Positions 507-44,814 of a DNA stretch of 44,855 bases are shown one piece after another. Numbering within the stretch: the first letter of the stretch is position 1; each line of letters begins with the position of its first letter. The stretch lies in the NCBI GenBank assembly GCA_012164735.1, contig GCA_012164735.1_4544.1; one strand, given 5' to 3'. The notes beneath the pieces were generated by a model that was not told where the DNA came from, made no database searches, and saw nothing but the letters and a program-made list of their open reading frames with translations. This stretch comes from a phage. The position numbers and the translations under genes were made by a program.

Positions 507-2771
507 ATGAGCTTAATTAAATTCGCTGTAACAAGACCCGCTAAAAAAGGCGAAAAAGCCAGGGCGGAAAACTTCCAGATGACGACCGATGAATTTTTCG
601 AATTTATCAAAGATGCGAAAGAGATATCGTCGGTGCATATCAACAAGACGGAAGATAAAGCCGAGTATGCGCGCCGCAAGCGTAAGGCCGATGGCATCGT
701 AGCGTATACCAGTGACGGCTTACGCCGCAAGACCAGTGCGGTGGACCGCTCGATCCTGTTCTTCGATATTGACCGTACCGACACCCGCACCCTACGCCGC
801 TGCCGTAAGGCTTTCATCGACGCGGGGCTGGAGCACGTATTTCACACCACAACCGGCGACCGCCACCCGCTGAAAGGCGGCACGCGTTGCGCTCGTTTCC
901 TGGTGCTAACCGATAAGCCTGTACCGGCGGAAGACCTGGGCCGCGTACAGTATGCACTATTACACCAACTGGGCCTGTCAGATGTGGACTTCGATGATTG
1001 CACGAAAGACACAAACCGCCTGATGTACCTGCCACACCAGCAGTCTGTTATTAAGTGCCACTACGGCAAGCGTGCCCGCGTCCGTCGTCTGCTTCGCCTG
1101 GCGGATAAGTTGGGCGTGGATAAGGAGGAAGTACGCCGCGAGCTTACCCAGGGCGACGACGCAGTGGCAGACGGCATTCTGGACTGGTGCTTCCAGGCAG
1201 GATTCGAGGAGTTATCTTCCGGTCGCGGTTATGAAGTGCCGTGCCCGAACGAACATCTGCACAGCGGCGAAGGGTCGACGGCTATCATGGTCAAGGATGG
1301 CGAGATCCGTTTCAAGTGTATGCACACCGGCAACGAGTGTTGCTCGGAACTGAACAGACACCAGCACCTGGCGCTACGTCTTATCGGGATCCCGGACCAC
1401 CTGAACGTCGAACCACACAACATGTCACGTAAGCAAATCGCCGCCATCCTCCCCGGACTGGACGACGAGGAAGTGGAATCGTGCTATGCGCATATCGTTG
1501 ATGCGGTCGGAGACGGCGACGAGTACGGCGGATGTACTGATGCAGACCTGGACAACGAGCCGGTTGCGCTGTTCAGTAAGCACGACCCGATCATCGAGGG
1601 GTTGATTAACTTTAAATCGACCTGGTATATGGCGGGCGAGTCGAACATCGGTAAATCGTTCTACGTGCTGGGCCAAATGGGTGCGGTTGCCGCGGGGATT
1701 CCTTTCGGTGGTGCTAAGGTCGTCCAGTCTCATTGCTTCTATTTCGATGCGGAAGGTGGCGAAGCCTCCAACCAGCGTAAGGAAGCACTGCAGATCAAAT
1801 ATGAGCACGACCTGGACAAGCTGCACATTATCGACCTGCAATCTCGCGGCTGGGATATCACCAGCAAATCCGGCTTGCGTGAAGTTATCAGCTTCATCAA
1901 CCGCACCGCTAACGGCGAACCTGTTGGCCTGGTGGCGTTCGACTCTCTCAACCAGACTGTTGCGCTGCGGTCCGCCGATGCTAAACCGTTCGACGAGAAC
2001 AACGCCAGCGATATGGGCGAAGTGGTAAAAGCGCTGAAAGCCATCGCGGAAAATACCGGCGGCAGTGCTGGCGTCATCCACCACCCGGCGAAGGGTGCAA
2101 ACGGCAGCAGATCCCCCCGCGGGTCCGGCGCGCTGCATGGTGCTGTTGATTCTGCGTTCTTCCTGGAGCAACCGGACGACAACCAGCCAGGCCAATTGAA
2201 CCTGTATCACGAAAAGGCACGTAACGGCATCAAGCAAGCGCCGCGTGGCTTCGTCCTGCTCAAGTGCAAGGTGAAGGTAGATCTCCGCAAGTCAGAAGCG
2301 TTCGCGTCGCACCAGTCCACCAGCACCGGTCCGGACTTCGGAGACGTAGTTGCCGGTTGGGACGTCAAACCAATTGCGTCCACCCCGCGCGACGAGACTT
2401 TATACCTCGTACCGGTCGCCCTGGCACCGTTCGCTATAGAACAGGCGAAGGCCGCAGGAAAAGCCGCAGTTAAGGAAGAGAACACCGCCGGACCGCGCAC
2501 CGAAAAAGAAAAGGTACTTTACGCGGCGCTGGAAAAACTGATGGAAGAGAACCCGGACCATACCGGATTCAGTAAATCGGCGATTGTCCGCCAAGCGGGA
2601 CTTGCGAAAGGTGGCACATCGACGAAGGCAATCGACGATATGATCGAGCGCGGCGTACTCGGTTTTTATACAGACCCGCACACCGGGGCCATCTACGGGT
2701 CGTCGAATATCGTCATCAAAACGAATATACCCATCACGCTTTCGGCGACCGATGATGACTTAAAAGACTAA
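507..2771 (+). CDS. Replication initiator: archaeo-eukaryotic-type primase domain fused to RecA-like (Walker A/B) helicase, with C-terminal putative winged-helix DNA-binding domain
   Basis: 754 aa; FFDIDRTD and HVFHTTTGDRH motifs (AEP-like DxD / sxH); Walker A GESNIGKSF; Walker B-like LVAFDSLN; RBS aagg upstream. Confidence 0.7.
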   Translation: MSLIKFAVTRPAKKGEKARAENFQMTTDEFFEFIKDAKEISSVHINKTEDKAEYARRKRKADGIVAYTSDGLRRKTSAVDRSILFFDIDRTDTRTLRRCRKAFIDAGLEHVFHTTTGDRHPLKGGTRCARFLVLTDKPVPAEDLGRVQYALLHQLGLSDVDFDDCTKDTNRLMYLPHQQSVIKCHYGKRARVRRLLRLADKLGVDKEEVRRELTQGDDAVADGILDWCFQAGFEELSSGRGYEVPCPNEHLHSGEGSTAIMVKDGEIRFKCMHTGNECCSELNRHQHLALRLIGIPDHLNVEPHNMSRKQIAAILPGLDDEEVESCYAHIVDAVGDGDEYGGCTDADLDNEPVALFSKHDPIIEGLINFKSTWYMAGESNIGKSFYVLGQMGAVAAGIPFGGAKVVQSHCFYFDAEGGEASNQRKEALQIKYEHDLDKLHIIDLQSRGWDITSKSGLREVISFINRTANGEPVGLVAFDSLNQTVALRSADAKPFDENNASDMGEVVKALKAIAENTGGSAGVIHHPAKGANGSRSPRGSGALHGAVDSAFFLEQPDDNQPGQLNLYHEKARNGIKQAPRGFVLLKCKVKVDLRKSEAFASHQSTSTGPDFGDVVAGWDVKPIASTPRDETLYLVPVALAPFAIEQAKAAGKAAVKEENTAGPRTEKEKVLYAALEKLMEENPDHTGFSKSAIVRQAGLAKGGTSTKAIDDMIERGVLGFYTDPHTGAIYGSSNIVIKTNIPITLSATDDDLKD

Positions 2772-5207: not shown

Positions 5208-5498
5208 ATGGATAAGCTAAACGAGTGGTTATTCGCCCTCGCGTGTCTTGCAGGTGGCTTCGTTGGCGCTCGCATTCACGGGGAGGCAACGAAAGGGCCG
5301 CTAAACTTTGTGTTGTTTATCGTGGTCGGCTTCTTGTGTGCCGTGTTCGGTGCACCGGCTATTGCTGAGTGGTTTAATCTAACCGGACCGAGAACGGTTG
5401 CCGGTCTTGGCTTCGTTACTGCCATCTTCTGGATGCCGGTAGCTGCCAGAATCCGAGAAGCAATTTCCTCGTTCCGTCTGCCGGGGGGTGCAAAATGA
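5208..5498 (+). CDS. Holin candidate (multi-TM small membrane protein)
   Basis: 96 aa, several hydrophobic segments; directly upstream of second membrane protein and the endolysin. Confidence 0.45.
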   Translation: MDKLNEWLFALACLAGGFVGARIHGEATKGPLNFVLFIVVGFLCAVFGAPAIAEWFNLTGPRTVAGLGFVTAIFWMPVAARIREAISSFRLPGGAK

Positions 5499-5737
5499 TT
5501 ATCGCCATCCTGTTATTAGTGATCGGGGCTTCGTCGCTGTATAACGTATACGCGCCATCCGTCCAGGATGGCATTTGCGGACGGGTGCTCTACTTGCTTA
5601 CAGCAATGACCTGTATTATTGGCCTGATGCAAACGGGGGACGTATCGAATACAGTCTGGTCCGTGCTAATCTGGCTATTCGCATTGCGCACGCTGCGTAA
5701 TGCGGTTTTAAATGGGGTAAAACATGCGATTCAGTGA
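5495..5737 (+). CDS. Holin/antiholin candidate (small membrane protein)
   Basis: 80 aa, two hydrophobic segments, overlaps neighbours by 4 and 14 nt. Confidence 0.45.
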   Translation: MIIAILLLVIGASSLYNVYAPSVQDGICGRVLYLLTAMTCIIGLMQTGDVSNTVWSVLIWLFALRTLRNAVLNGVKHAIQ

Positions 5738-6215
5738 CAACGGTCTAAGATTTACGGCAGCCTGGGAGTCATTCAGCCCGGTGCCGTATTTCGCGACTAA
5801 GAAAGAGCAGGCCCGCGGCCTGTATACCTGGGGCTATGGTCATACTGGCACTAATCCGCCGCGGAGCATTACCCGCGCGGAAGCGCTGGATCTACTCAAG
5901 CGTGATGTGGCGTATGCTGAGAACTGGGTGAACAAGTACGCGCATTCGAGTATCAATCAGGCGCAATTCGACGCGCTGGTGGACCTGGTAATCAATGCCG
6001 GTCAGGGTCCAATCGTACCGGACAACATTGCCAACGACTTCGATGACGCGGTGCGCCTGGGTGACTGGGCGAAAGTCCGTGCTACACTGCCACAATTCCG
6101 CAAGCAAGGCGGTGAAGTGCTCAAGGGTCTGGTCCGTCGTGCAATCGGCAGACAGGCGCTATTCGATGGTAAGCAGTGGGACGTTGCCGAGAAAATCGGG
6201 CGTAACGCAGCATAA
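5724..6215 (+). CDS. Endolysin, lysozyme-like (GH24-type glycosidase)
   Basis: 163 aa; E ... GLYTWGYGHTG resembles T4-lysozyme-type catalytic Glu plus GYGH motif. Confidence 0.7.
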   Translation: MRFSDNGLRFTAAWESFSPVPYFATKKEQARGLYTWGYGHTGTNPPRSITRAEALDLLKRDVAYAENWVNKYAHSSINQAQFDALVDLVINAGQGPIVPDNIANDFDDAVRLGDWAKVRATLPQFRKQGGEVLKGLVRRAIGRQALFDGKQWDVAEKIGRNAA

Positions 6216-6230
6216 TACGAGGAACACAGT

Positions 6231-6398
6231 ATGTTAAAAAGCATTCTTGATCATAACGCGGACGCGCTTGCCGCACTGGCTAAAACCGAAGACCCAGGCG
6301 CACGCGCCATTATCGCGGACACAATCAGTCATGCGGGTGTCTTTGACGCGAAGCTGCCAAGCCCGCCACCGCCGGAAGAACCAGGCCCAGCGGCCTAA
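6231..6398 (+). CDS. Small hypothetical protein (55 aa, Pro-rich C-terminus)
   Basis: RBS gagga 7 nt upstream; followed by terminator; hand-translated. Confidence 0.35.
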   Translation: MLKSILDHNADALAALAKTEDPGARAIIADTISHAGVFDAKLPSPPPPEEPGPAA

Positions 6399-6404
6399 CC
6401 ACGC

Positions 6405-6430
6405 AAGCCCGGCTAATGTCGGGCTTTTTA
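6405..6430 (+). terminator. Rho-independent terminator
   Basis: Stem aagcccg/cgggctt, loop 8 nt, T-run. Confidence 0.55.
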
Positions 6431-6494
6431 TTGCTTGACTTGCAACCAACACAGAGGCCATACTGCAACCAATCAACGAGAGGAGTAACACACT

Positions 6495-6575
6495 ATGACA
6501 CGCAATGATATTTATGTACTGGCAATCTGGTCCGCCGCCGCATTCATCGGTATGGTTATTTGCGAATTGCTATAG
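6495..6575 (+). CDS. Candidate micro-ORF encoding a 26-aa hydrophobic peptide
   Basis: Strong RBS gagaggag 7 nt upstream of ATG; sequence MTRNDIYVLAIWSAAAFIGMVICELL; downstream of paired GCAACCAAT motifs. Confidence 0.3.
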   Translation: MTRNDIYVLAIWSAAAFIGMVICELL

Positions 6576-6636
6576 CCCGCCGCCATAGGGACCGTGGTAT
6601 ATTGTCCCCGGACCCATAATCAGGAAGTAAATTAAT

Positions 6637-7779
6637 ATGCACCCTCAAACTAAAATTACCGACGAGCAATTGATCGCTGAATTGCAATCTGGCACTACCT
6701 CGAAAGATATTGCGAAGAAATACGGCATTGCCCTTCGAAATGTCTATATGCGCAAAGCCCGCCTGTCGAAGAAAGGCATTGGACACGGCAACGATGCTGT
6801 AATCCGCAAGCGCGTTGCCGATGGCTTCGGCGTTAAGCGTGTATCAGCCCTGGTGCGCGGCAATGGCGAAGAGGTCATGTCCTGGGTCATCACCGAGCAG
6901 GACAAGGAGCGCCAACTTGAAGCAATGCGCGCCGTTGTCGAGGGTATGAACAGCGAAATCACACCGGCAGCACCAGTGAGCGCTCCGCCAGTCCCGATCC
7001 AGGCGCTTGACCTGCTTAACCTGTATACCGTGTCAGACTTCCACCTGGGAATGTTGGCGTGGGGCGAGGAGACTGGCGAGGACTGGGATATGGCAATCGC
7101 CGAAGACCTTTTTTACCGCTGGTTTGTCGAAGCCTTCGCCCGCGCGCCGGACGCTGGCACTGCTGTAATCAATATCCTCGGTGATATGGCCCACTTTGAC
7201 AGCCTTGACGCCGTCACGCCAGCCAGTGGTCACGTACTGGATGCCGATACCCGCTACCAGAAGTTGGTCCGCTACATGATTCGCATGGTGCGCAACGTGG
7301 TTGAACTGGCGCTGCAAAAACACCATAAGGTCAAACTGCTAATCGTCCAGGGTAATCATGATGAGTCCGGTATGATTTGGCTGGCTGAAATGTTCAATAC
7401 CCTGTACGAGAACGAGCCACGCGTCGATGTTGACACGTCACCTGACGTCTACAAAATGGTGCAGCACGGTAAGACAACGCTGTTCTTCCACCACGGACAC
7501 AAGGCACGCTTTGACGCCATCGAACCGGTCATGATTTCTAAATTCAGACAGGCTTTCGGGTCCAGTGAGTACAGCTACGCGCACGTAGGCCACTTGCACC
7601 ACCAGAAGATTGTTGAATCCCGCAACATGATTGTTGAACAGCACCGGACCCTTGCCGCGAAAGACGCATACGCAAGCCGCGGCGGTTGGATGTCCGGTCG
7701 CAGTGCAAACGTCATCACCTATAGCGCCAACTACGGCGAAGTAGCGCGCTTAACCATTAGCCCGGAAATGTTGAAATGA
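6637..7779 (+). CDS. Metallophosphoesterase (Mre11/SbcD-like motifs) with N-terminal HTH-like region
   Basis: 380 aa; motifs VSDFHLG, ILGDMAHFD, VQGNHDE, HHGHK typical of calcineurin-like phosphoesterases; RBS aggaag. Confidence 0.6.
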   Translation: MHPQTKITDEQLIAELQSGTTSKDIAKKYGIALRNVYMRKARLSKKGIGHGNDAVIRKRVADGFGVKRVSALVRGNGEEVMSWVITEQDKERQLEAMRAVVEGMNSEITPAAPVSAPPVPIQALDLLNLYTVSDFHLGMLAWGEETGEDWDMAIAEDLFYRWFVEAFARAPDAGTAVINILGDMAHFDSLDAVTPASGHVLDADTRYQKLVRYMIRMVRNVVELALQKHHKVKLLIVQGNHDESGMIWLAEMFNTLYENEPRVDVDTSPDVYKMVQHGKTTLFFHHGHKARFDAIEPVMISKFRQAFGSSEYSYAHVGHLHHQKIVESRNMIVEQHRTLAAKDAYASRGGWMSGRSANVITYSANYGEVARLTISPEMLK

Positions 7780-8657: not shown

Positions 8658-10042
8658 TGCGTAACTATGCGGCAGAACACCGCGCACTTGAACGCGCGAT
8701 CGCAAAGCGCAACCGACCGCCACGCCCTACGCGCGTTGCGCAGGCCGTCCGCCTGTATCAGCCTGATTGCCTACCGCACCAGGTGGAACTGCTGCGCGAC
8801 ACGAAGACTAAAATCCTCGGATTGTGTTCCGGCTTCGGTGGCGGAAAGTCGTGGGTCGCGGCGCGTAAGGTCATCCAGCTTCTCACACTTAACCCTGGTC
8901 ATGATGGCATCGTGACAGAACCGACTATTCCACTCCTGGTTAAAATCATGTACCCGGAGCTTGAGAAGGCTTTCGACGAGGCCGGATTCCGGTGGAAGTT
9001 CAACAAGCAAGATAAAATCTATAGCGTGCTGGTGAAAGGCAAATGGACCCGCGTTATTTGTGAGTCAATGGAGAACTACACCCGCCTGATCGGGGTTAAC
9101 GCCGCGTGGATTGTTGCCGATGAGTTCGACACCACGAAGCAAGACGTCGCTATGGCGGCTTACCACAAACTGCTTGGTCGTCTGCGTGCGGGCCTGGTAC
9201 GCCAGTTCGTCATCGTATCCACGCCTGAAGGCTTCCGGGCGATGTACCAGATTTTCGAAGTGGAGAAGGATAGCCAGAAACGTTTGATCAGGGCGAAGAC
9301 TACCGATAATCACCACTTACCGGCAGACTTTATCGACACGCTGCGCAGCCAATACCCGGCTAACCTGATTGATGCGTACTTGAACGGCCTGTTTGTCAAC
9401 CTTACGTCGGGCGCGGTGTACAAGATGTTCAACCGGGAGGAGAACGCCAGCACCGAAGAAGTGCAGCCGGAAGACACGCTGATTATCGGCATGGACTTTA
9501 ACGTCACGAAGATGGCGGCGGTCGTGTATGTCAGACGGCAGCGCATCACCGAAAACAAGGAGTTCCGCGACGAGATTCACGCAGTGGATGAATTTGTGGA
9601 CCTGTTTGATACCCCGGCTATGATTGAGGCGATCGAGGAGCGATACCCCGAACATTGTGCCGCCGGTAGGGTCGTCGTTTACCCGGATAGCAGTGGCAAG
9701 TCTCGTAAGACTGTTAACGCATCGTCGTCCGATATTGCGCAACTGGAAGACGCGGGCTTCGAGGTGGAATACGACAGCGTTAACCCACCTGTGAAAGACC
9801 GATTGATCGCGATGAATACGATGATGTGCAACTCGAAGGGTGTGCGCCAGTATTTTGTCAACCTGGATAAATGCCCTACACTAGCGAAATGTCTGGAACA
9901 GCAGGTTTACGACCTGAAGAAAGGCGAGCCGGATAAAACCGCCGGTGTGGACCACATGAACGATGCCGCGGGCTATCCAATTGCGCACCTGTTCCCAGTG
10001 ATTCGCCCAATCGCCGTTGTTCCAACTGTAGACTTCTACTAA
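8657..10042 (+). CDS. Terminase large subunit
   Basis: 461 aa; Walker A-like GFGGGKSW; position before portal. Confidence 0.85.
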   Translation: MRNYAAEHRALERAIAKRNRPPRPTRVAQAVRLYQPDCLPHQVELLRDTKTKILGLCSGFGGGKSWVAARKVIQLLTLNPGHDGIVTEPTIPLLVKIMYPELEKAFDEAGFRWKFNKQDKIYSVLVKGKWTRVICESMENYTRLIGVNAAWIVADEFDTTKQDVAMAAYHKLLGRLRAGLVRQFVIVSTPEGFRAMYQIFEVEKDSQKRLIRAKTTDNHHLPADFIDTLRSQYPANLIDAYLNGLFVNLTSGAVYKMFNREENASTEEVQPEDTLIIGMDFNVTKMAAVVYVRRQRITENKEFRDEIHAVDEFVDLFDTPAMIEAIEERYPEHCAAGRVVVYPDSSGKSRKTVNASSSDIAQLEDAGFEVEYDSVNPPVKDRLIAMNTMMCNSKGVRQYFVNLDKCPTLAKCLEQQVYDLKKGEPDKTAGVDHMNDAAGYPIAHLFPVIRPIAVVPTVDFY

Positions 10043-10052
10043 GGAAACGACT

Positions 10053-11573
10053 ATGACCGTTAACGTTGACAACCAGCACCCGCTCTATGCGCGCATCGCG
10101 CCTGAGTGGAAAATGATCCGTGATTGCGTGGCAGGTGAGCGCGCCGTGAAGGCGTGCGGCCCCTTATACCTTCCACACCCAGCCAGTGGCGACAACACTG
10201 ACCCGAAAGCACGGGCGCGATACAAGGCGTATAAGCAACGCGCTGTATTCCTGAACGCCACCGCCCGCACACTTAACGCGCTGTTAGGCGTTGCCTTTGC
10301 TAAACCGGTAAGTCTGGACCTTTCCGGGGCGATGGCTGACCTGATTGACGACGTAGACGGCAGCGGGATGCCACTGCCACAACTCCTGCGCGGTGCTATG
10401 TCTGAAGTGCTGCAATCGGGACGTGCGGGCTTTATGGTCGACTACGACCGCCAGGCGCATTTTGATGAACTGGGTAACGTAGTGCCGCAGACCGCCGCCG
10501 AGATGGCGTCACACCGCCCGCTTATCCGCCTGTACACGGCAGAACAGATCATCAACTGGCGGCAGACCCACGGCGTCGATACGCTAATTGTGCTGAAGGA
10601 AACTGACGAAATCAGCACCGAAGACCCCGACGACTTCGCAAACCACGAAGTCACAATCTGGACTGAATTGCGCATGATTGACGGCAAGGCACACGCCCGC
10701 CGCTGGTTTTATAATGCGGACACGTCAGAAGTGCAAATGGACTTGCCGCGGGGATTCACCCGTACCGACCTTGTGCCACTGGTGGATGCTGCCGGTAACG
10801 CGCTTACGCAACTGCCTTTCTGTTGGTGTGGTGCGGTGGACAACAACGCAACGCCTGACGCCGCTCCGCTGGCGGATATCGCATCCATCAACATTAAGCA
10901 CTACAACGCCGAAGCGGACGTCGCCGAGATTGCGCACATCGTGGGCCAACCTACACTCATTGCGACTGGTCTGACCCAATCATGGGCGGACAAGAACCTG
11001 AAAGGAGGCATCGCGCTCGGGGCAACTAAGGGCGTTATCCTGGGCCAGAACATGGACGCCAAACTGCTTCAGGCGGAGGAGCGCAACTTGTCTGTTGCAC
11101 TGTGTGAGCGCCGCGAATTGCAAATGGCTAAACTGGGCGCGGCCCTTGTCGAGAAAGGGACCGCACCTAAGACGGCAACAGAGGCGGCTTATGATGCGCA
11201 GACTGATAACAGTATCCTGTCTCTGATTGCCGGTAACGTTGAGAAGGCTTTCAACCGTGCGCTGCAAATCGTCAAGCTGTTCACTGGCGACACCGCAGAT
11301 CAACGCGTAACGCTGAATAAGTTCTACACCGAAATCACGGTTGACGCACAGCTTATGACCGCAATGATGGCGGGTGTGCAGACCGGTACTGTCCGTCTGG
11401 CGGACTTTATCAAGTGGATGATGGCCCAGGGCGTTATTGATGACTCGCAAACCGTCGAGCAGGTGGAAGACGAACTGCGAAATCAGAATCCATTGCCTCA
11501 AATGTCCCCTGATGCGGTAGAATCTACCGAAGAAGACCCGGACAAGGTAGCGGACGATGGCGAGAACAATTAA
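10053..11573 (+). CDS. Portal protein
   Basis: 506 aa, strong RBS aagga, follows terminase; synteny. Confidence 0.7.
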   Translation: MTVNVDNQHPLYARIAPEWKMIRDCVAGERAVKACGPLYLPHPASGDNTDPKARARYKAYKQRAVFLNATARTLNALLGVAFAKPVSLDLSGAMADLIDDVDGSGMPLPQLLRGAMSEVLQSGRAGFMVDYDRQAHFDELGNVVPQTAAEMASHRPLIRLYTAEQIINWRQTHGVDTLIVLKETDEISTEDPDDFANHEVTIWTELRMIDGKAHARRWFYNADTSEVQMDLPRGFTRTDLVPLVDAAGNALTQLPFCWCGAVDNNATPDAAPLADIASINIKHYNAEADVAEIAHIVGQPTLIATGLTQSWADKNLKGGIALGATKGVILGQNMDAKLLQAEERNLSVALCERRELQMAKLGAALVEKGTAPKTATEAAYDAQTDNSILSLIAGNVEKAFNRALQIVKLFTGDTADQRVTLNKFYTEITVDAQLMTAMMAGVQTGTVRLADFIKWMMAQGVIDDSQTVEQVEDELRNQNPLPQMSPDAVESTEEDPDKVADDGENN

Positions 11574-12660
11574 TCAATATATGGCGGACCGCATGATCCG
11601 CCGACACATCTTCACCCAGCGCCTGAGTAATGACCAGGCGCGAAGGGTGCTGTCCATGTGGGAGAAGTTCCGGCCTACATTACTGGGAAAGCTGACCGAG
11701 TTGCTTGATGGCAAATCGTCAATGAACAACAAGGCACTTTCCACCCTGCTAACGCAAATCGACAAGACCGTAAAAACGGAACTGCGCACCGAGTTTAAGG
11801 CGTTGGCTGAAAGCCTTCAGGAGTTTGCAGACACGGAGGCTGATTATCTCGCCGACACATTAACGGCAGCGATCCAGCCGGTGGTCGCCGTACCTGCGGT
11901 CGAGGTGGTTGGTGTAGTGACCGGTGCGCAGATCGCAGCGACGGCTATGAAAAACCCGTTCCAGGGTAATACTATGATGCAATGGCCTGACTCACTTTCA
12001 GAGTGGACAAGGACGCAGATCGGTAACCAGGTGCGAGCGGGATTCATCCAGGGCAAGCCAACGATGGAAATTATTGCGGACGTGAGGCGCGCGCTAGGCG
12101 GTCGTAGTGCGCAAGCGATCTCAAGCGTCGTTAAGTCCGCGGTCAACCACTATGCGGCGACCGCCCGCGAATTAATGGTAAAAGCTAATGACGATATTCT
12201 CGAAGGCCGCCAATGGTTGGCTACATTGGACACGCATACTTCTCCCATGTGCCAGCTACGCGATCGCCTGTTTTATCCGGTTGATGTTACTCCCGACACC
12301 AAAGGAAAGCGCGGCGGGAAAGTGGTGGCTGGATCACAATATGGCGCTGGTCCGGGCAAGTTGCATTATTGCTGCCGTTCGACGGAGACGTGGAAAGTCA
12401 AAGGTATGGAAGATTGGCCCAGTGGTAAGCGTCCGGCACTGAAGGCTGACGCGGGTCGATTGCTTAGTGAGCAGGTCGACGCGCAGACTGATTTCTTCTC
12501 CTGGGTGCAGCGCCAGCCTCGCCATATTCTGGAGGAATTATATGGGGTGCAGCGCGCTGACCAGATTATGCGCGGCGTGAAAGTGCCGAAGATGTTTACC
12601 GATTCTGGCGAACTGATGACTATCGCACAGCTTAAAAACCGGGGGTTATGGCGTGATTAA
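11557..12660 (+). CDS. Head morphogenesis protein (Mu F / SPP1 gp7-like)
   Basis: 367 aa following portal; synteny. Confidence 0.6.
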   Translation: MARTINQYMADRMIRRHIFTQRLSNDQARRVLSMWEKFRPTLLGKLTELLDGKSSMNNKALSTLLTQIDKTVKTELRTEFKALAESLQEFADTEADYLADTLTAAIQPVVAVPAVEVVGVVTGAQIAATAMKNPFQGNTMMQWPDSLSEWTRTQIGNQVRAGFIQGKPTMEIIADVRRALGGRSAQAISSVVKSAVNHYAATARELMVKANDDILEGRQWLATLDTHTSPMCQLRDRLFYPVDVTPDTKGKRGGKVVAGSQYGAGPGKLHYCCRSTETWKVKGMEDWPSGKRPALKADAGRLLSEQVDAQTDFFSWVQRQPRHILEELYGVQRADQIMRGVKVPKMFTDSGELMTIAQLKNRGLWRD

Positions 12661-38556: not shown

Positions 38557-40848
38557 TTACTTCCTGTACCTGTACATAATGTCGCCTTCGGCGGCAAGTG
38601 GGAAGCCTTTCGCCCAAATAGGCAGGTCGCACATCAGCGCGCAAAGCTCCTCTGTCGTGTAGTCGTCGGTGTCCGGCACTTCTGTGATCAATTCATCATG
38701 CACCGATAGAACGATTTCATAGCCCGCAGCTTCAACGCCAGGCATTGACCAGGCGAGAATATCACGGCACAACGCCTGTACTATGTTCTCCGTCAGTTTG
38801 CCGCCGTAGGTATACTGGAAGCCCCACTGGCGCGTCGTCTGATTCTCGCCCTGATATTTAATGCGTGTGCTGGTGCGCTTCTTGCCGGTGTCTTCGTCAA
38901 TCTCGGTCGTGACAGACAGCGCGATGCCCGGGTAGCTCATGATGCGCCCCGACGGCAACTCAATTTTCAACCACCACCCCGCGGCGTTCGGATCGTCGCG
39001 CTCCTCGTCGAAGGTTGGGTCGTGCTTCGCCTTCGTGCGCACAATCTTGAGCGCTTTCCTACCGTCCGGGCGAACGTTCGCGCCAGCCCAGTATGCTTTG
39101 CCCGGATTGCGGATTGCACACAACACCGCGTCCTCAAGCTCGGCCCAAAAGGCGACCGTCTTCGGGTGAGCCTCGCGCCACATGCGTTTGATTGCGTCAC
39201 AAGTCAGCCATACGTTTTTCGGAAGTATGTATGTTGGGCGCTCGTCTTTCTTGCCTGGCCTCGGTGGGCGTTTCGCTTCGTTAATACGAGCGTACTCATA
39301 ACCGCGTTTAGCTGCCGCCCAAATGTGATCGGGGAATGTACCCTTCATCACGTCCGCCATAGCGTAAAGGTCGAGGCCCAGGTTTTTAGCGAACTGCAAG
39401 AACGCCGCGACGCCGCCACCATAGCCCAGTCCCAATTCACACGCCTTACCGATCTGGCGCAAGTCTTTGCGGTTGGCTTTAATGTAGTCCGGGTCCAGGC
39501 CGAACATCTTACCGGCAGTCTCACAATAGATATCGCGACCGGCCCTAAACACCATTAGCGCGGTTTTCTCGCCCGCGATCCAGGCAAGTCCACGCCCTTC
39601 CACGTTGGAGTAGTCCGCTACGACAAACTTCTTGCCCTTAGCCGGGATAATGCACCCGCGAACGGTCGAGGCTGTTAGCTTAGATATGTCATACGCCCAG
39701 TGCGCGGTCCCGCGTAACAGGGAATTGATGCCGTTGGTGAGCATGTGCGACCGGACCCAAAAAGCAACGTCGCTCTCGCCTTCGCGGCGCTTAATCTTCC
39801 CTTCGTGATCGTCGCTATACTCGCCGCGTGCCAGGTTTTGAGGCTGGAAGCCTTTGCCCGCCCAGCGCAGCGTGCGCTTTGCGCCGCCATACTGAAGACA
39901 CCCACGGCGGCGACCATCTGCGGATAAGCCGTTAACTAGCGGATTGTACTTAGTCGATGCCGTTGATGACGCGCCGAGGCGCATTTCGATAAGCGCTTTG
40001 CCTTCGTCGGGGAAGTCCGGGTCTTCAAGCAGGTCGTTAAGTGTGGATTTCTGCGCGTTGTGGATCGTGAACGCCGGGGCGATATCACGTAGGATTGGCA
40101 GGAAGTCATTGCCGGTCAGCTTACCGCCAAATCGCTCCCAGGCTTCCTCCTTCAATTCTTCCTTATGCGCCTGCACCGCTTTGATCGCGGCGTTCGCCAG
40201 GTCAACGTCGACATAGAAGCCGCGGTCGTTGATCAACTGGTCAATAAGCAGTATCTCGTCTTCCTTCGGAGTATTACCCCAGTCCGGTATGCGCCAGTAG
40301 ACCTCACGCATCGCGATAATATCCAGCGCGGCATATCGCAGAAATTTGGCCCATTCTTCAGGGTGAGTCTCGCGCGTGTAACGGCGTATTTTGTAGGTCT
40401 TAGGGGTAGGCTTACAGAATCGTTTAATCAGCGCCTTGCCTGCCTTATCCTTCGCGTGTTCTGCGTCAACACCCAACACCTGGCATTGCATATCGAGGCT
40501 ACCCGGCAGCGCGTGTCGAAAGGCCATAATCATGGTATCTTCGATCTGGCACACTGGCAGGTCAATACCCCACTTCTCGCGAATAACCAGGCGGTCAAAC
40601 AGGAGGCCGTTAGCCATCACGATTTTTGCTTTCTTGCGGGAGACACGGCGGAGCGCCTTGCGCAGTTCCCGCGGCATTGTGGGGGACTCGGTGCAATCCC
40701 ACGTCTGCACGCGGCCCTCGTCGATGGCGTAGGTGCAGATCATAATCTCGGTTGTCGGGTGCTCTGCGTAGGCGTATGCGCCAACTTTCTTCAGATCCAC
40801 CCCGCTAAATGTCTCGGTATCGAGAAACAGGCGTTCGAAGTCTTTCAT
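38557..40848 (-). CDS. DNA polymerase, family A, with N-terminal 3'-5' exonuclease domain
   Basis: DTET (exo I), DYSNVEGR (motif A), HDE (motif C). Confidence 0.9.
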   Translation of the reverse strand: MKDFERLFLDTETFSGVDLKKVGAYAYAEHPTTEIMICTYAIDEGRVQTWDCTESPTMPRELRKALRRVSRKKAKIVMANGLLFDRLVIREKWGIDLPVCQIEDTMIMAFRHALPGSLDMQCQVLGVDAEHAKDKAGKALIKRFCKPTPKTYKIRRYTRETHPEEWAKFLRYAALDIIAMREVYWRIPDWGNTPKEDEILLIDQLINDRGFYVDVDLANAAIKAVQAHKEELKEEAWERFGGKLTGNDFLPILRDIAPAFTIHNAQKSTLNDLLEDPDFPDEGKALIEMRLGASSTASTKYNPLVNGLSADGRRRGCLQYGGAKRTLRWAGKGFQPQNLARGEYSDDHEGKIKRREGESDVAFWVRSHMLTNGINSLLRGTAHWAYDISKLTASTVRGCIIPAKGKKFVVADYSNVEGRGLAWIAGEKTALMVFRAGRDIYCETAGKMFGLDPDYIKANRKDLRQIGKACELGLGYGGGVAAFLQFAKNLGLDLYAMADVMKGTFPDHIWAAAKRGYEYARINEAKRPPRPGKKDERPTYILPKNVWLTCDAIKRMWREAHPKTVAFWAELEDAVLCAIRNPGKAYWAGANVRPDGRKALKIVRTKAKHDPTFDEERDDPNAAGWWLKIELPSGRIMSYPGIALSVTTEIDEDTGKKRTSTRIKYQGENQTTRQWGFQYTYGGKLTENIVQALCRDILAWSMPGVEAAGYEIVLSVHDELITEVPDTDDYTTEELCALMCDLPIWAKGFPLAAEGDIMYRYRK

Positions 40849-41015
40849 TGCTTAATCCTCACTACGGCGTCAGCGCTGCCGATCATGGAGAAGATGCCGT
40901 CTGACAGGGCGATCTCTTCGCCGTTGTTGCGAATCTCGGCAACTGTGAAATATTCCCCCAGTAGCTTGGACCATACTTGCATTCCGACTTTTACTTCGCT
41001 GGCTTTAATACGCAT
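40845..41015 (-). CDS. Small ORF (56 aa) translationally coupled to the polymerase gene
   Basis: Stop overlaps polymerase ATG (ATGA); hand-translated. Confidence 0.3.
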   Translation of the reverse strand: MRIKASEVKVGMQVWSKLLGEYFTVAEIRNNGEEIALSDGIFSMIGSADAVVRIKQ

Positions 41016-41030
41016 TTTTCATTGTCCTAT

Positions 41031-41054
41031 TAAAAAGCCCGCATTAAGCGGGCT
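41031..41054 (-). terminator. Minus-strand intrinsic terminator downstream of the SSB-like gene
   Basis: rc: agcccgc ttaat gcgggct then TTTTTA. Confidence 0.55.
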
Positions 41055-41073
41055 TGAATAGTGGGCTTTGCCC

Positions 41074-41856
41074 TTAACGGCGGCGACGTTTACGTGGCGC
41101 TTCGTCTTCGTCGTCGTCCTCATCTTCGTCATCGCGTGGCTTACGACGTTTGCGAGGTTTTTCATCTTCCTCATCGTCGTCGTCATCGCGGCGCTTGGAT
41201 TTCTTGGACTTGCGCGGCTTGTCATCTTCATCATCGTCATCACGACGTTTTGACTTTTTGGACTTGCGCGGTGCTTCGTCTTCGTCGTCGTTGTCCAGGT
41301 CTTCATCGGAGCAAGAAGACCCGCCACCTCCGAAGGCTTCGCCGTCTTCACGGAATCGCAGACCCAGCAAGCCAGCCCCGAGACCCTTGCCGTTGGTATT
41401 GTTCCATGCCCAAATATCAAGGGACACGTTGCAATAACAACCGGAGTAGATCTCCTGGCCTTCAATCTCGTCGCCGTCGATGGTCAGACCTTGTTCAGTC
41501 TGCTTCTCGCCGAGTGACGTTTGAATGATTGGTTGTTTGAACGATTTGGCGTTGATATACAACATGCCTTCGAATTCTTCGGTTACTTCATCGCGCTCGT
41601 CGCCGTCGCGAACTGCACATTCCTTAGAATCCTGGGCGTAGTGGCGGTCCATCCACTTATCGGCATTCTTCTCGGATTTCAGCTTATCGGTGAGCACTGC
41701 GCGCGCTGCCGCTTCCACTTTATCCACCTGCGGATCTTCTTTATCCAGAAGAATCACGGCACGGTATGCCGGTTTTTGTCCATCCTGTTTAGGGGTATCA
41801 CGTTCCCAAATTTTCAGGAAGCATACGCGCACATTTTTCAGGTTGACTTTAGCCAT
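41074..41856 (-). CDS. Single-stranded DNA-binding protein-like (phage SSB-type fold) with long alternating basic/acidic repeat C-terminal tail
   Basis: MAKVNLKNVRV ... YSGCYCNVSLDIWAWNN ... FGGG core; C-terminus of PRKSKKSKRRDDDD-type repeats; RBS gagga. Confidence 0.55.
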   Translation of the reverse strand: MAKVNLKNVRVCFLKIWERDTPKQDGQKPAYRAVILLDKEDPQVDKVEAAARAVLTDKLKSEKNADKWMDRHYAQDSKECAVRDGDERDEVTEEFEGMLYINAKSFKQPIIQTSLGEKQTEQGLTIDGDEIEGQEIYSGCYCNVSLDIWAWNNTNGKGLGAGLLGLRFREDGEAFGGGGSSCSDEDLDNDDEDEAPRKSKKSKRRDDDDEDDKPRKSKKSKRRDDDDDEEDEKPRKRRKPRDDEDEDDDEDEAPRKRRRR

Positions 41857-41911: not shown

Positions 41912-41936
41912 CTTGGTTGCTAATCTACTTGGTTGC
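41912..41936. promoter_or_regulatory. Paired CTTGGTTGC motifs (41912-41920, 41928-41936) upstream of the SSB-like gene
   Basis: Two copies 16 bp apart. Confidence 0.45.
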
Positions 41937-41946
41937 GCCTGAGCGG

Positions 41947-42189
41947 TCAAGCATTTTCATTAAAAAGATTTCTGGTAACGTAGTTGGTAGCGTTCTCGAT
42001 CCAGCTTAACGGCGGGCGGTCGCCATGTCTCGCGATCCACGCCACGGCAATGGTGCTGTATCCATCGTCCAGCCAGCGGGTCGGATGGCGAATCATCCAC
42101 GCCACCATTAACACGCCTTGCACGCAATGCAGGATAAAGCCCAGCGCTCCGAGCAAAAACATCAATAAGATTGCGAATACTTTATTCAT
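41947..42189 (-). CDS. Small membrane protein
   Basis: 80 aa; two hydrophobic segments; RBS gagga. Confidence 0.4.
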   Translation of the reverse strand: MNKVFAILLMFLLGALGFILHCVQGVLMVAWMIRHPTRWLDDGYSTIAVAWIARHGDRPPLSWIENATNYVTRNLFNENA

Positions 42190-43612
42190 TGCTTAAGTCC
42201 TCGTCAGTAGCTTCCGACCACGCAGGGCGCGGGTCGTCGATTGGTGCTAACACCGGTTTGGCAGGTGCGCGCGTGATTTTATCACACAGCTTCGCCCACA
42301 CTTTCGGTTTTTCGTCCTTCAGTACCTTCTCGGCATCCGTAGGGCTGAGCAATGTTTCTTTGTACATCACATCGCGCTTGATCCTGGCCTTCGTGAAGAT
42401 TTCAATCACTTCGCTCTCGTCCGCCCACTTGCGGATTCCTTCCTTACCGGCAACCATCTTGAGGCCCAGCGATTCGCCATCACCAGCCATTACGGCCTTG
42501 AATACCGCGGACTCGATAGCCTTGATGTGCTGGCGCATTGCGTCAAGACCTTCATATGCCTTGCGCAGTTCCGCGGCGGTCATAGCGCCGGGGGCCGCTT
42601 CTTTCTTGCCACGCTTCGCACGTCGGGCCGCCTTCCGGGCTTCGCGGGCCATATTGCGGTCGTGATTGGCGCATTCTTCCTCGGTCGCCACGCTCACGTC
42701 GTCGCCCAGGTCTTCGTCGGTTGCCGTTGGAGGTGTCATCGTGTCGATTGCGGCTTTAGCGCGGGCACTACACTGATCCGCAAATCGACACCACTGGCAC
42801 GCATCAACGCTGGGCCGGAAGTCTGCGCGGGTGAGTCCCTTCTTGCCTCGGGAATACGCCTCCAGTGCGGCAATAGCGCGCTTGGATGCAAACTTCGCGA
42901 ATATCTCCAGCGCTTCTACCGAAATATCCCACTCCGACGCCCCGCCGCAATACGGCTGGAAGATAACCAGGCGCACGGTCGTGATGTCGTACATGGATTG
43001 CAGCTTGCGCAGCAGGCCTAGCGCGTACAACATAAGCTGTTTGTTTTCTTTCGCCTCGACCTTATGCCGCCCCGTCTTCAGGTCGCCAACAATCAGCATG
43101 TACGTGCCGTCGGTCTTCTTCATGACCATGACCATATCCGCAGTCCCGAACGTCTTAACCCGGTTGCCGTCGATCTCGAAGCCCGAGTGTAGGACGCGGG
43201 TAAGATCGGCGCGCATCTCAAGCTGAACAAACTCCGCCACTTCGAGGAGCGGTCGCCAGTGGTCGATGTACGCGTCGCACTGTTTCACCATGTCGTCGTT
43301 GACCAGTACGCCGCCTTTCGGTGCTTTCGGGTGTGCCTTTACTGGCCCCTTACCTTCGTTCTCGACGTAACACCCTTTGTACGTCTTGGCGGTTATCAGC
43401 TTTTCCCCGGCAATGATGCGGTTGAGCACTACCTCTGATACGGTGTGCATACTCGTACCGTTAATAGCCGCTTGCCCGGATTCGTTCGGGATACCTTGTT
43501 CTACCACCAGGGCGGCAGGGCAACCCATCCATTTTTTAGCACCGGACGGCCCGAGTAATGAGTGTTCGGTATTGCTACCGGATTGCGTCTTACGTTTTGG
43601 TTTAATCGCCAT
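42182..43612 (-). CDS. PD-(D/E)xK exonuclease (Cas4/RecB-nuclease-like, with Cys cluster) carrying a C-terminal extension
   Basis: N-terminal HSLLGPSGAKKWMGCP; CQWCRFADQC cluster; 476 aa. Confidence 0.6.
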   Translation of the reverse strand: MAIKPKRKTQSGSNTEHSLLGPSGAKKWMGCPAALVVEQGIPNESGQAAINGTSMHTVSEVVLNRIIAGEKLITAKTYKGCYVENEGKGPVKAHPKAPKGGVLVNDDMVKQCDAYIDHWRPLLEVAEFVQLEMRADLTRVLHSGFEIDGNRVKTFGTADMVMVMKKTDGTYMLIVGDLKTGRHKVEAKENKQLMLYALGLLRKLQSMYDITTVRLVIFQPYCGGASEWDISVEALEIFAKFASKRAIAALEAYSRGKKGLTRADFRPSVDACQWCRFADQCSARAKAAIDTMTPPTATDEDLGDDVSVATEEECANHDRNMAREARKAARRAKRGKKEAAPGAMTAAELRKAYEGLDAMRQHIKAIESAVFKAVMAGDGESLGLKMVAGKEGIRKWADESEVIEIFTKARIKRDVMYKETLLSPTDAEKVLKDEKPKVWAKLCDKITRAPAKPVLAPIDDPRPAWSEATDEDLSNE

Positions 43613-44100: not shown

Positions 44101-44619
44101 TTAATCTTCCAGTTCGAAATAGGTTTCGACGATTTCTTTTAACTCTGTGTGGAAGTCTTCGACGTCGTCATCTTCCAGCTTGGCGATTGATTTGATCTCG
44201 AACGATTCCAGCAGGTCGTCGAATTCGTCGTTCGCATCGTCGTCATCACCACCGGCGATAATCGCGGCATACTGTTTGATTTCGTCGCGCATCTCCGCCA
44301 GCGGATCGGCATCTTTCTTACCTTTGCCTTTCGCCGGTGCTTTTTTAGCCTTAGCCGGTTTTTCGTCTTCGGCTTCTTCGTCGTCGTCATCTTCTACGAC
44401 TTCTTTTTTGGCCTTACCTTTCGCCGGTGCTTTTTTAGATTTAGCCGGTTTTTCGTCTTCAGCTTCATCGTCGTCATCTTCGACAACTTCTTTTTTGGCC
44501 TTAGACGGCTTCTTGTCTTCCTGTTTACCAACGGCAGCGCCAACGGTTTCATAATGCTTTGCAATGGTTTCCAGTGCTACTACGCCGCGAGTGATCAGGT
44601 TTACGATTTGCTCAAACAT
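44101..44619 (-). CDS. Highly acidic protein with two ~34-aa tandem repeats (start at ATG 44619); first gene of the minus-strand block
   Basis: RBS ggag; KKEVVEDDDDE ... KPAK ... KKAPAKGK repeated twice; ~100-bp DNA direct repeat 44320-44520. Confidence 0.55.
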   Translation of the reverse strand: MFEQIVNLITRGVVALETIAKHYETVGAAVGKQEDKKPSKAKKEVVEDDDDEAEDEKPAKSKKAPAKGKAKKEVVEDDDDEEAEDEKPAKAKKAPAKGKGKKDADPLAEMRDEIKQYAAIIAGGDDDDANDEFDDLLESFEIKSIAKLEDDDVEDFHTELKEIVETYFELED

Positions 44620-44814
44620 GGTATATCTCCGATTGGTTAAGTTTAGGTGTCGGCAGTTAACTTCGTCGGTGGCCTTAACATATTGCCAGGTTACGCGTTC
44701 TCCCGTTCGGGTAGTGGACCTGGTTATATAATCACGGTTGGGAATCCTGACACTTCGATCCGGCCCCTGCGTTGCCCCTCTCCAGTTTGCGTCCTGCATC
44801 CTGTCGACGGAGTG

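Follow-up and report, generated by a model that had tools for sequence, protein, structure and literature searches.

The minus strand of a 44,855-nucleotide phage contig, GCA_012164735.1_4544.1 (the whole stretch is called the window hereafter), encodes a single-stranded DNA-binding (SSB) protein whose C-terminal tail alternates between acidic and basic blocks, and this raises the question of whether such a tail replaces the acidic tail of phage SSB proteins or elaborates it. A first-pass annotation made from the letters alone had called the product SSB-like, had described its tail as unusual, and had suggested that the tail acts through a different interaction mode, such as self-association or condensation, which is plausible. 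We found that the protein is a T7 gp2.5-type OB-fold replication SSB of the Enc34/DUF2815 family. The protein family was already known; the new part is the alternating-charge tail, an elaboration below the level of the domain. The identity of the protein and the architecture of its tail are near certain, and what the tail does is stated below with less confidence.

The window is a Dhillonvirus genome, i.e., that of an HK578-like E. coli siphophage, and 155 phage records matched its SSB region with 84-99% DNA identity, the nearest being vB_EcoD_Teewinot (98.8%). The open reading frame (ORF) opens with MAKVNL at an ATG located at 41856 and preceded by an AGGA Shine-Dalgarno sequence; a mechanical ORF list puts the start at an upstream GTG. 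The product was compared with Pfam and matched PF10991 (Enc34_ssDNA-bd, formerly DUF2815) with 109.9 bits (cutoff 26, E 1.4e-31), residues 3-193 aligning with profile positions 2-173 of 176. The best match among the PHROGs was family 112, 'Gp2.5-like ssDNA binding and annealing protein' (E 1.9e-55), and a sequence search of the PDB returned the Enc34 ORF6 SSB and two DUF2815 structures at E ~1e-11. In the AlphaFold2 model, computed with 74 homologs, the predicted local distance difference test score (pLDDT) was 91-98 over residues 1-170, which form the beta-barrel with a long capping helix that characterizes the T7-type OB fold. The best Foldseek matches in the PDB, each with a probability of 1.00, were 4klk (E 2.9e-12), the complex of Enc34 SSB with single-stranded DNA (ssDNA) 5odl (E 4.5e-12), 5odj, 4jg2 and then T7 gp2.5, 1je5 (E 3.9e-6). 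The core is identical at 176 of 177 residues to that of the SSB from SECphi4, also a Dhillonvirus. The profile, PDB and model matches all bear out the SSB-like core of the first-pass annotation.

A HMMER alignment to the ssDNA-contact residues of Enc34 placed F13, K104 and W149, which are alike in kind, opposite Tyr30, Arg112 and Trp150. Enc34 Tyr37 and Tyr156 are without a positional match, as they align with T21 and N155; W17 and W151 are close by, the latter in a W149-A-W151 pair. Judged from this alignment, the DNA-contact residues appear to be partly conserved. Preferential binding to ssDNA was shown biochemically for Enc34 ORF6 in the report of that protein (PMC5686142). The protein is not of the E. 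coli type, defined by a homotetrameric OB fold and a DDDIPF-type tip: Foldseek gave E >0.5 and the tip is basic. The two SSBs are alike in outline, since both join an OB domain to a disordered segment and an acidic-hydrophobic peptide, which in E. coli are a cooperativity-modulating linker and the DDDIPF peptide for many partners. However, the E. coli protein is a tetramer of another OB family with an uncharged, Gly/Pro/Gln-rich linker, and in the window protein the acidic-hydrophobic peptide is proximal.

The tail consists of 83 amino acids, GGSSCSDEDLDNDDEDE-APRKSKKSKRR-DDDDEDD-KPRKSKKSKRR-DDDDDEEDE-KPRKRRKPR-DDEDEDDDEDE-APRKRRRR, in which a Gly hinge and the acidic motif S-D-E-D-L precede four modules of the form [7-11 D/E][x-P-7-10 K/R] and the end PRKRRRR (Table 1). 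The string quoted in the first-pass annotation was exact, as the minus-strand translation gives ...DEAPRKSKKSKRRDDDDEDDKPRKSKKSKRRDDDDD... in the 260-amino-acid ORF. The interval 41074-41250 that it assigned to the feature takes in only the distal two-thirds (~58 codons, followed by the stop codon) of a tail that runs from 41325 down to 41077. The tail includes 28 K/R and 36 D/E residues for a net charge of -8. From residue 181 on, the mean pLDDT was 48-58 per 10-residue block and the sole secondary structure in the model was a short turn at 184-186, so the tail is predicted to be disordered. Its fraction of charged residues (0.77), its charge-segregation kappa (~0.55), and a block segregation 10 standard deviations above that of 500 composition-preserving shuffles are, with the predicted disorder, the properties of a blocky polyampholyte intrinsically disordered region (IDR). 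The tail resembles such IDRs, nucleolar proteins with K-blocks and D/E tracts, and SPKK- or AT-hook-like basic motifs. What it has in common with blocky polyampholyte IDRs is the charged fraction, the kappa value and the Pro-initiated basic blocks (xPRK), a likeness of composition without homology. The SPKK (S/T-P-K/R-K/R) and AT-hook (P-R-G-R-P) motifs themselves were not found in the tail, which has A/K-P-R-K without Ser/Thr. A homology search with the tail only (77 amino acids; 5.8 billion proteins) yielded 340 word-sharing candidates, of which none was significant.

Table 1. Features of the SSB locus and related motifs in the window (44,855 nucleotides)
Feature	Coordinates	Strand	Basis or remark
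SSB gene (260 amino acids + stop codon 41074-41076)	41074..41856	-	ORF and translation, PF10991, PHROG 112, annotation of relatives
OB-fold core, residues 1-177	41326..41856	-	AlphaFold2, Foldseek, SECphi4 identity
C-terminal tail, predicted disordered, residues 178-260	41077..41325	-	GGSSC-SDEDL..., then four acidic/basic modules
Proximal acidic-hydrophobic motif S183-D-E-D-L187	41296..41310	-	Putative partner-docking motif
Acidic block 1, residues 184-194	41275..41307	-	DEDLDNDDEDE
Basic block 1, residues 196-205	41242..41271	-	PRKSKKSKRR
Acidic block 2, residues 206-212	41221..41241	-	DDDDEDD
Basic block 2, residues 213-223	41188..41220	-	KPRKSKKSKRR
Acidic block 3, residues 224-232	41161..41187	-	DDDDDEEDE
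Basic block 3, residues 233-241	41134..41160	-	KPRKRRKPR
Acidic block 4, residues 242-252	41101..41133	-	DDEDEDDDEDE
Basic C-terminal tip, residues 254-260	41077..41097	-	PRKRRRR
54-nucleotide tandem DNA repeat beneath modules 1-2	41166..41291	.	Tandem Repeats Finder score 147, 2.3 copies, 73% matches
TDDDL near the C-terminus of the replicative helicase-primase (507..2771), two residues ahead of its stop	2748..2762	+	...SATDDDLKD, then stop
TDEDL, C-terminus of the DUF2800 PD-(D/E)XK exonuclease	42194..42208	-	...EATDEDLSNE, then stop
Second motif copy, within the exonuclease	42707..42721	-	TATDEDLGDD
Intrinsic-terminator-like hairpin	41030..41055	-	AGCCCGC-loop-GCGGGCT, then T run; directly 3' of the SSB stop
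Sigma-70-like promoter match 5' of the SSB gene	41922..41950	-	TTGACC-17-TAGATT; weak (1 site vs 1.4 expected)

The hallmark of the family is an acidic tail with a hydrophobic or aromatic end. The window protein, with four K/R blocks and a PRKRRRR end, lacks it; this is a departure below the domain level, and membership in PF10991 stands. According to the Enc34 paper (PMC5686142), the tail is acidic in each of the four T7-type SSBs with a solved structure. Enc34 ORF6, the SSB of an Enterobacter/Hafnia phage (5odj/5odk/5odl), shares with the window protein the Pfam family, the fold, the exonuclease-SSB-PolA neighborhood, and a disordered C-terminal segment that follows a Gly-rich hinge. However, its tail is short and acidic (D/E at 16 of the last 29 residues), in contrast to the longer, basic-tipped tail found here. 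T7 gp2.5, a replication SSB and annealing protein, has the same fold at a sequence identity of ~12-14%. Its tail is largely acidic (3 basic vs 22 acidic residues, compared with 28 vs 36 in the window protein) and has an essential aromatic end (...DGDF) where the window protein has RKRRRR. The T7 C-terminal region, EDDWADEVEE...SAKASKPR...DEESWDEDDEESEEADEDGDF, nonetheless has a rudimentary acidic-basic-acidic layout that ends in F. The first-pass annotation was mistaken in taking this tail as purely acidic, since SAKASKPR sits between two acidic stretches.

The tail was then followed through the relatives of the window. Dhillonvirus tails differ in length by insertion or deletion of whole modules: there are two modules in EP23, three in HK578, TheodorHerzl, Envy, and SECphi4, and four in the window, rolling, SECphi18, and JohannBuxtorf. 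The SECphi4 and SECphi18 SSBs are otherwise essentially the same protein as that of the window, with the same type of tail. Outside the genus, one module (...VDDLEDDEDETPRRERRRNR) was found in Jerseyvirus SETP13 and in E. coli phage vB_Eco_K-01, two in Cornellvirus Shemara, and three in Klebsiella phage VLCpiS11a, while Kosakonia phage Kc259 has an acidic stretch and then a basic stretch. Phocaeicola phage BD26P2, Corynebacterium phage SamW, APSE-7, and Proteus phage Inception (Casjensviridae) have an ordinary acidic tail. The DUF2815 SSB of the marine Loktanella phage pCB2051-A (Casjensviridae; locus 380-1286) carries more than 100 amino acids of E-P-R-G-R-G-R(-G-R) / D-E repeats, an extreme Arg-Gly version of the alternating tail that is RGG/AT-hook-like.

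An unbiased sample of the family was obtained by using only the core domain as query against 1.84 billion cluster representatives and taking the best 150 of ~1,760 family matches. Among the 149 tails classified in this sample, 119 were canonical acidic, 11 alternating, 8 had one basic block, and 11 were of other kinds. A search with the full protein added many ~30%-identical proteins with 4-8 D/E-x-P-K/R modules, including a protein of the alphaproteobacterium Amorphus orientalis, and distant alternating tails often closed with a classical tip (...DDDVA, ...DDEIPF, ...DDDLPF). In a neighbor-joining tree of 270 cores, the tails containing basic residues formed a clade of 80, a clade of 27, and ~15 smaller groups, with ~16 changes of tail state and 17 pure clades. 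The clade of 80, which takes in the enterobacterial siphophage SSBs, includes the window, Guernseyvirinae phages, and Kc259, and all 80 members have at least one basic block. Because it occurs in these two clades and in ~15 further groups, the alternating tail is a minority state that recurs within the family and no one-off expansion. The word 'unusual' in the first-pass annotation is therefore apt with respect to the family (11 of 149 among the best of ~1,760 matches) but not as an oddity of one phage. The same annotation had proposed that homologs be compared to distinguish a conserved tail from a lineage-specific one; the tail was conserved in seven of seven Dhillonvirus sequences and recurred in distant members. 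No description of an alternating SSB tail was found in the accessible portions of the literature on Enc34/DUF2815 SSBs, SSB tails, and Dhillonvirus.

Two properties of the ordinary tail are preserved in the alternating one. The first is net charge, with a median of -9 (interquartile range -13 to -6) in alternating tails and -8 (-10 to -6) in canonical ones. Alternating tails are ~3 times as long as canonical tails and have ~20 basic residues; their net charge is conserved, the extra acidic residues offsetting the basic blocks. The second is a proximal acidic-hydrophobic motif after the Gly hinge, which was present in 111 of 118 alternating tails, 11 of 13 tails with one basic block, and 119 of 129 canonical tails. 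Retention of both the motif and the negative charge points to an elaboration of the canonical tail rather than its replacement.

The proximal motif is not confined to the SSB. The pattern [ST]D[DE]DL occurs four times in the six reading frames of the window, every time in a replication protein (Table 1), and the TDDDL end of the helicase-primase is identical in JohannBuxtorf_Bas84. Its form co-varies phage by phage among helicase-primase, exonuclease, and SSB. In SETP13, the helicase-primase ends in TEGDLE and the exonuclease in TEDDLEA, and the SSB tail has VDDLED. In APSE-7 the corresponding sequences are DEFDDL (internal, in a VirE-type protein), NDFDDV, and EEFDDL, and in SamW they are FDTPF at the end of the helicase-primase, EDDFASA at the end of the exonuclease, and DSFLD at the end of the SSB. 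In VLCpiS11a, the helicase-primase ends in SDEDLNS and has an internal copy, the exonuclease ends in SDEDLS, the SSB tail has NDDDLS, and a small protein ends in TDEDLE. These are all five copies in that genome, and the motif-bearing loci include 12447-12635 (+), 5298-7598 (-), and 9774-11138 (+). In T7, the acidic tails of the gp2.5 SSB and of the gp4 helicase-primase both dock on the polymerase. Because the layout found here mirrors that of the T7 tails, it suggests by analogy that the shared acidic-Leu motif may be a shared replisome docking peptide. This idea is moderately supported by the co-variation of the sequences.

Two other observations on the motif-bearing proteins were made. The small hypothetical protein of VLCpiS11a, gp23, is encoded directly upstream of the polymerase and its sequence closes with ...TATDEDLE. 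The window exonuclease has at residues ~295-345 an insert in which TATDEDLGDD is paired with a strongly basic stretch, REARKAARRAKRGKKEAAPG, as a miniature acidic/basic pair.

Taken together, we propose that the SSB joins a canonical docking motif to an extension that is self-complementary and compensated in charge, and through which autoinhibition, cooperativity, and contacts with nucleic acid are tuned. We give this proposal an even chance of being right. The OB core would bind ssDNA. The proximal SDEDL would then be the canonical partner- or cleft-binding element, by analogy probably directed at the polymerase as replisome hub or at the SSB cleft. The distal four modules and the Arg-rich tip would form a segregated self-complementary polyampholyte, with the net charge of -8 of ordinary acidic SSB tails. 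The acidic blocks may still occupy the basic cleft of the OB fold in competition with ssDNA, leading to autoinhibition and to discrimination between ssDNA and double-stranded DNA (dsDNA). This role is proposed because removal of the acidic tail of Enc34 ORF6 was reported to abolish the discrimination between ssDNA and dsDNA (PMC5686142). The basic blocks may bind to acidic blocks of the same molecule or of neighboring SSBs, and could touch nucleic acid. The result would be a tunable, multivalent SSB-SSB cooperativity and help in annealing, with condensates as a possibility. Modules would be gained when the repeat is duplicated in frame and lost when it is deleted in frame. The wider proposal, that an 'electrostatic zipper' for cooperative SSB assembly or annealing, possibly with condensates, recurs together with a common acidic-Leu docking code in Dhillonvirus/Guernseyvirinae-type replisomes, is tentative and rather unlikely to hold as a whole.

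Several points weigh against this proposal. Every mechanistic step, the zipper or cooperativity role of the modules among them, is an inference that draws on sequence composition, on conservation, and on analogies to the SSBs of T7, Enc34, and E. coli. The shared motif may be read by the polymerase or by the SSB cleft. Near-identical phages have between 2 and 4 modules; therefore, the extension may be loosely constrained. The word index of the full-protein search enriched that sample for similar tails and, as the neighbor-joining tree is noisy and the full-protein sample biased, repeated gain and repeated loss of the tail are not separable. The functional data on this SSB come from the Retron-Eco8 defense system. 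Expression of the SECphi4 SSB triggers Retron-Eco8 according to a preprint (bioRxiv 10.1101/2022.08.27.505566), whose legend to Fig. S2A states that the flexible SSB tail was left out of the structural comparison, and this SSB reportedly binds the msdDNA of the retron. The SECphi4 and SECphi18 escapers reported there carry T56P or an upstream intergenic (promoter) mutation, never one in the tail; one SECphi4 escaper has its mutation in the intergenic region 5' of the SSB gene. For T7, deletion of the SSB tail was reported to leave retron activation unaffected. Since the escapers map outside the tail and the T7 deletion was without effect, the functional data are silent on the tail. The escape mutations, all T56P or promoter changes, were dropped as a clue to tail function. 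No mention of tail composition was found in the accessible portions of the SECphi4/SECphi18 Retron-Eco8 publications.

The alternative that survives best is that the tail is a neutral low-complexity expansion, i.e., that the modules are products of slippage or unequal recombination in a disordered tail open to nearly any charged filler, with function confined to the OB core and the proximal motif. Copy number does vary among phages more than 90% identical (2 in EP23; 3 in HK578, Envy, and TheodorHerzl; 4 in the window), Jerseyvirus has one short module, and the DNA beneath the tail is tandemly repeated. The direct repeats noted in the first-pass annotation are real: Tandem Repeats Finder detected a 54-nucleotide period, and the pairs 41168-41221 / 41222-41275 and 41090-41134 / 41264-41308 (45 nucleotides) match at 74% and 78%, respectively. 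However, most of the divergence between the repeat units is synonymous. Between the two 18-codon units, 8 codons show synonymous and 4 show non-synonymous changes, three of the latter being D/E swaps. As the differences are mostly synonymous or D/E swaps, the protein pattern has been kept while the DNA drifts. In addition, the layout of an acidic block followed by a Pro-basic block is kept in many separate clades with cores only 30-50% identical, net charge stays at the canonical value, the basic block is present in every member of the 80-protein clade, and the APRKRRRR end is invariant in the Dhillonvirus sequences compared (n=7). Neutral expansion is thus possible but unlikely.

A second alternative takes the SSB itself as the hub. 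The basic blocks would receive the acidic C-termini of the helicase-primase and the exonuclease, and the number of modules would set the valency of recruitment. The helicase-primase and the exonuclease indeed end in acidic TD(D/E)DL peptides and the SSB offers four K/R blocks. Nonetheless, the exonucleases of SamW and APSE-7 have similar C-termini although the SSB tails of these phages are purely acidic; therefore, the partner tails need no basic blocks on the SSB. The SSB also bears the same acidic motif as these partners, an arrangement more in keeping with a third receptor common to all of them. The basic blocks were consequently downgraded as receptors of partner tails, and we regard this model as improbable.

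That the tail is an artefact, either a sequencing or assembly error in the repeat or the misread product of a gene in another frame or strand, is extremely improbable and was rejected, as the frame is kept across relatives and runs straight on from the confidently folded OB domain. The SSB region was covered by at least 80% in 151 of 155 matching phage records, the tail was in frame with the APRKRRRR end in seven of seven Dhillonvirus sequences (the window and six relatives from different laboratories), and 537 member sequences clustered under P0001 also keep the annotated SSB frame. Together these exclude the error in the repeat that the first-pass annotation had named as a possible refutation. 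In two records, P0005 (Escherichia phage vB_EcoS-22664B1) and P0008, the tail is read in another frame (...AMTKMKHRARLRSPNVV...GFLIGQ), most likely as a consequence of sequencing errors in the repeat. That frame is open in the window (41019..41465, -), as is an antisense ORF (41150..41437, +); open alternative frames are expected from runs of GAN/AAR/CGN-rich codons.

The SSB gene is adjoined by the genes for the DUF2800 PD-(D/E)XK exonuclease (42182..43612, -; PF10926/PF12705) and PolA (38557..40848; PF00476). The order DUF2800 exonuclease-SSB-PolA is the same in SETP13, VLCpiS11a, SamW, and APSE-7 and is the usual module for this SSB family. The hairpin located downstream of the SSB stop codon (Table 1) precedes a small ORF and the polymerase gene, and a 'terminator' is annotated at that place in CS16, PTXU06, and WFI; a scan for consensus terminators did not list it. 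By its sequence, this strong hairpin with its T run resembles an intrinsic terminator or attenuator, and it was retained on that ground and on the annotations in relatives. The small ORF (40845-41015, -; 56 amino acids, MRIKASEVKV...VVRIKQ) lies between the SSB and PolA genes, belongs to PHROG 10102, in which no function is assigned, and is identical to a SECphi18 protein. A supplementary table of Stokar-Avihail et al. includes a frameshift in the SECphi18 counterpart, E21fs, among defense-escape mutants. The ORF 44101-44799 (-) encodes 232 amino acids with a net charge of -19; charges are mixed in one segment, KGKAKKEVVEDDDDEEAEDE, and the C-terminus is acidic (...ETYFELED). In relatives, this ORF is annotated only as 'hypothetical protein'.

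SSBs of this type are under study as the phage component sensed by retrons and other defense systems and as annealing proteins for recombineering. Structures and figures of them routinely leave the tail out. The advance reported here is incremental and does not change the field. Nonetheless, a large clade in which the tail is a charge-compensated polyampholyte of variable module number, with conserved net charge and motif, changes how this tail can be studied. The phages provide a natural series, from 1 to 4 or more modules, for relating charge patterning in a disordered tail to how cooperatively the SSB acts, how it discriminates between DNAs, and whether it condenses. The motif shared with the ends of the helicase-primase and the exonuclease is a testable map of the possible wiring of the replisome in small siphophages. 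If true, it would represent a previously unrecognized docking code that the SSB shares with the helicase-primase and the exonuclease and, depending on the phage, also with a small protein encoded next to the polymerase.

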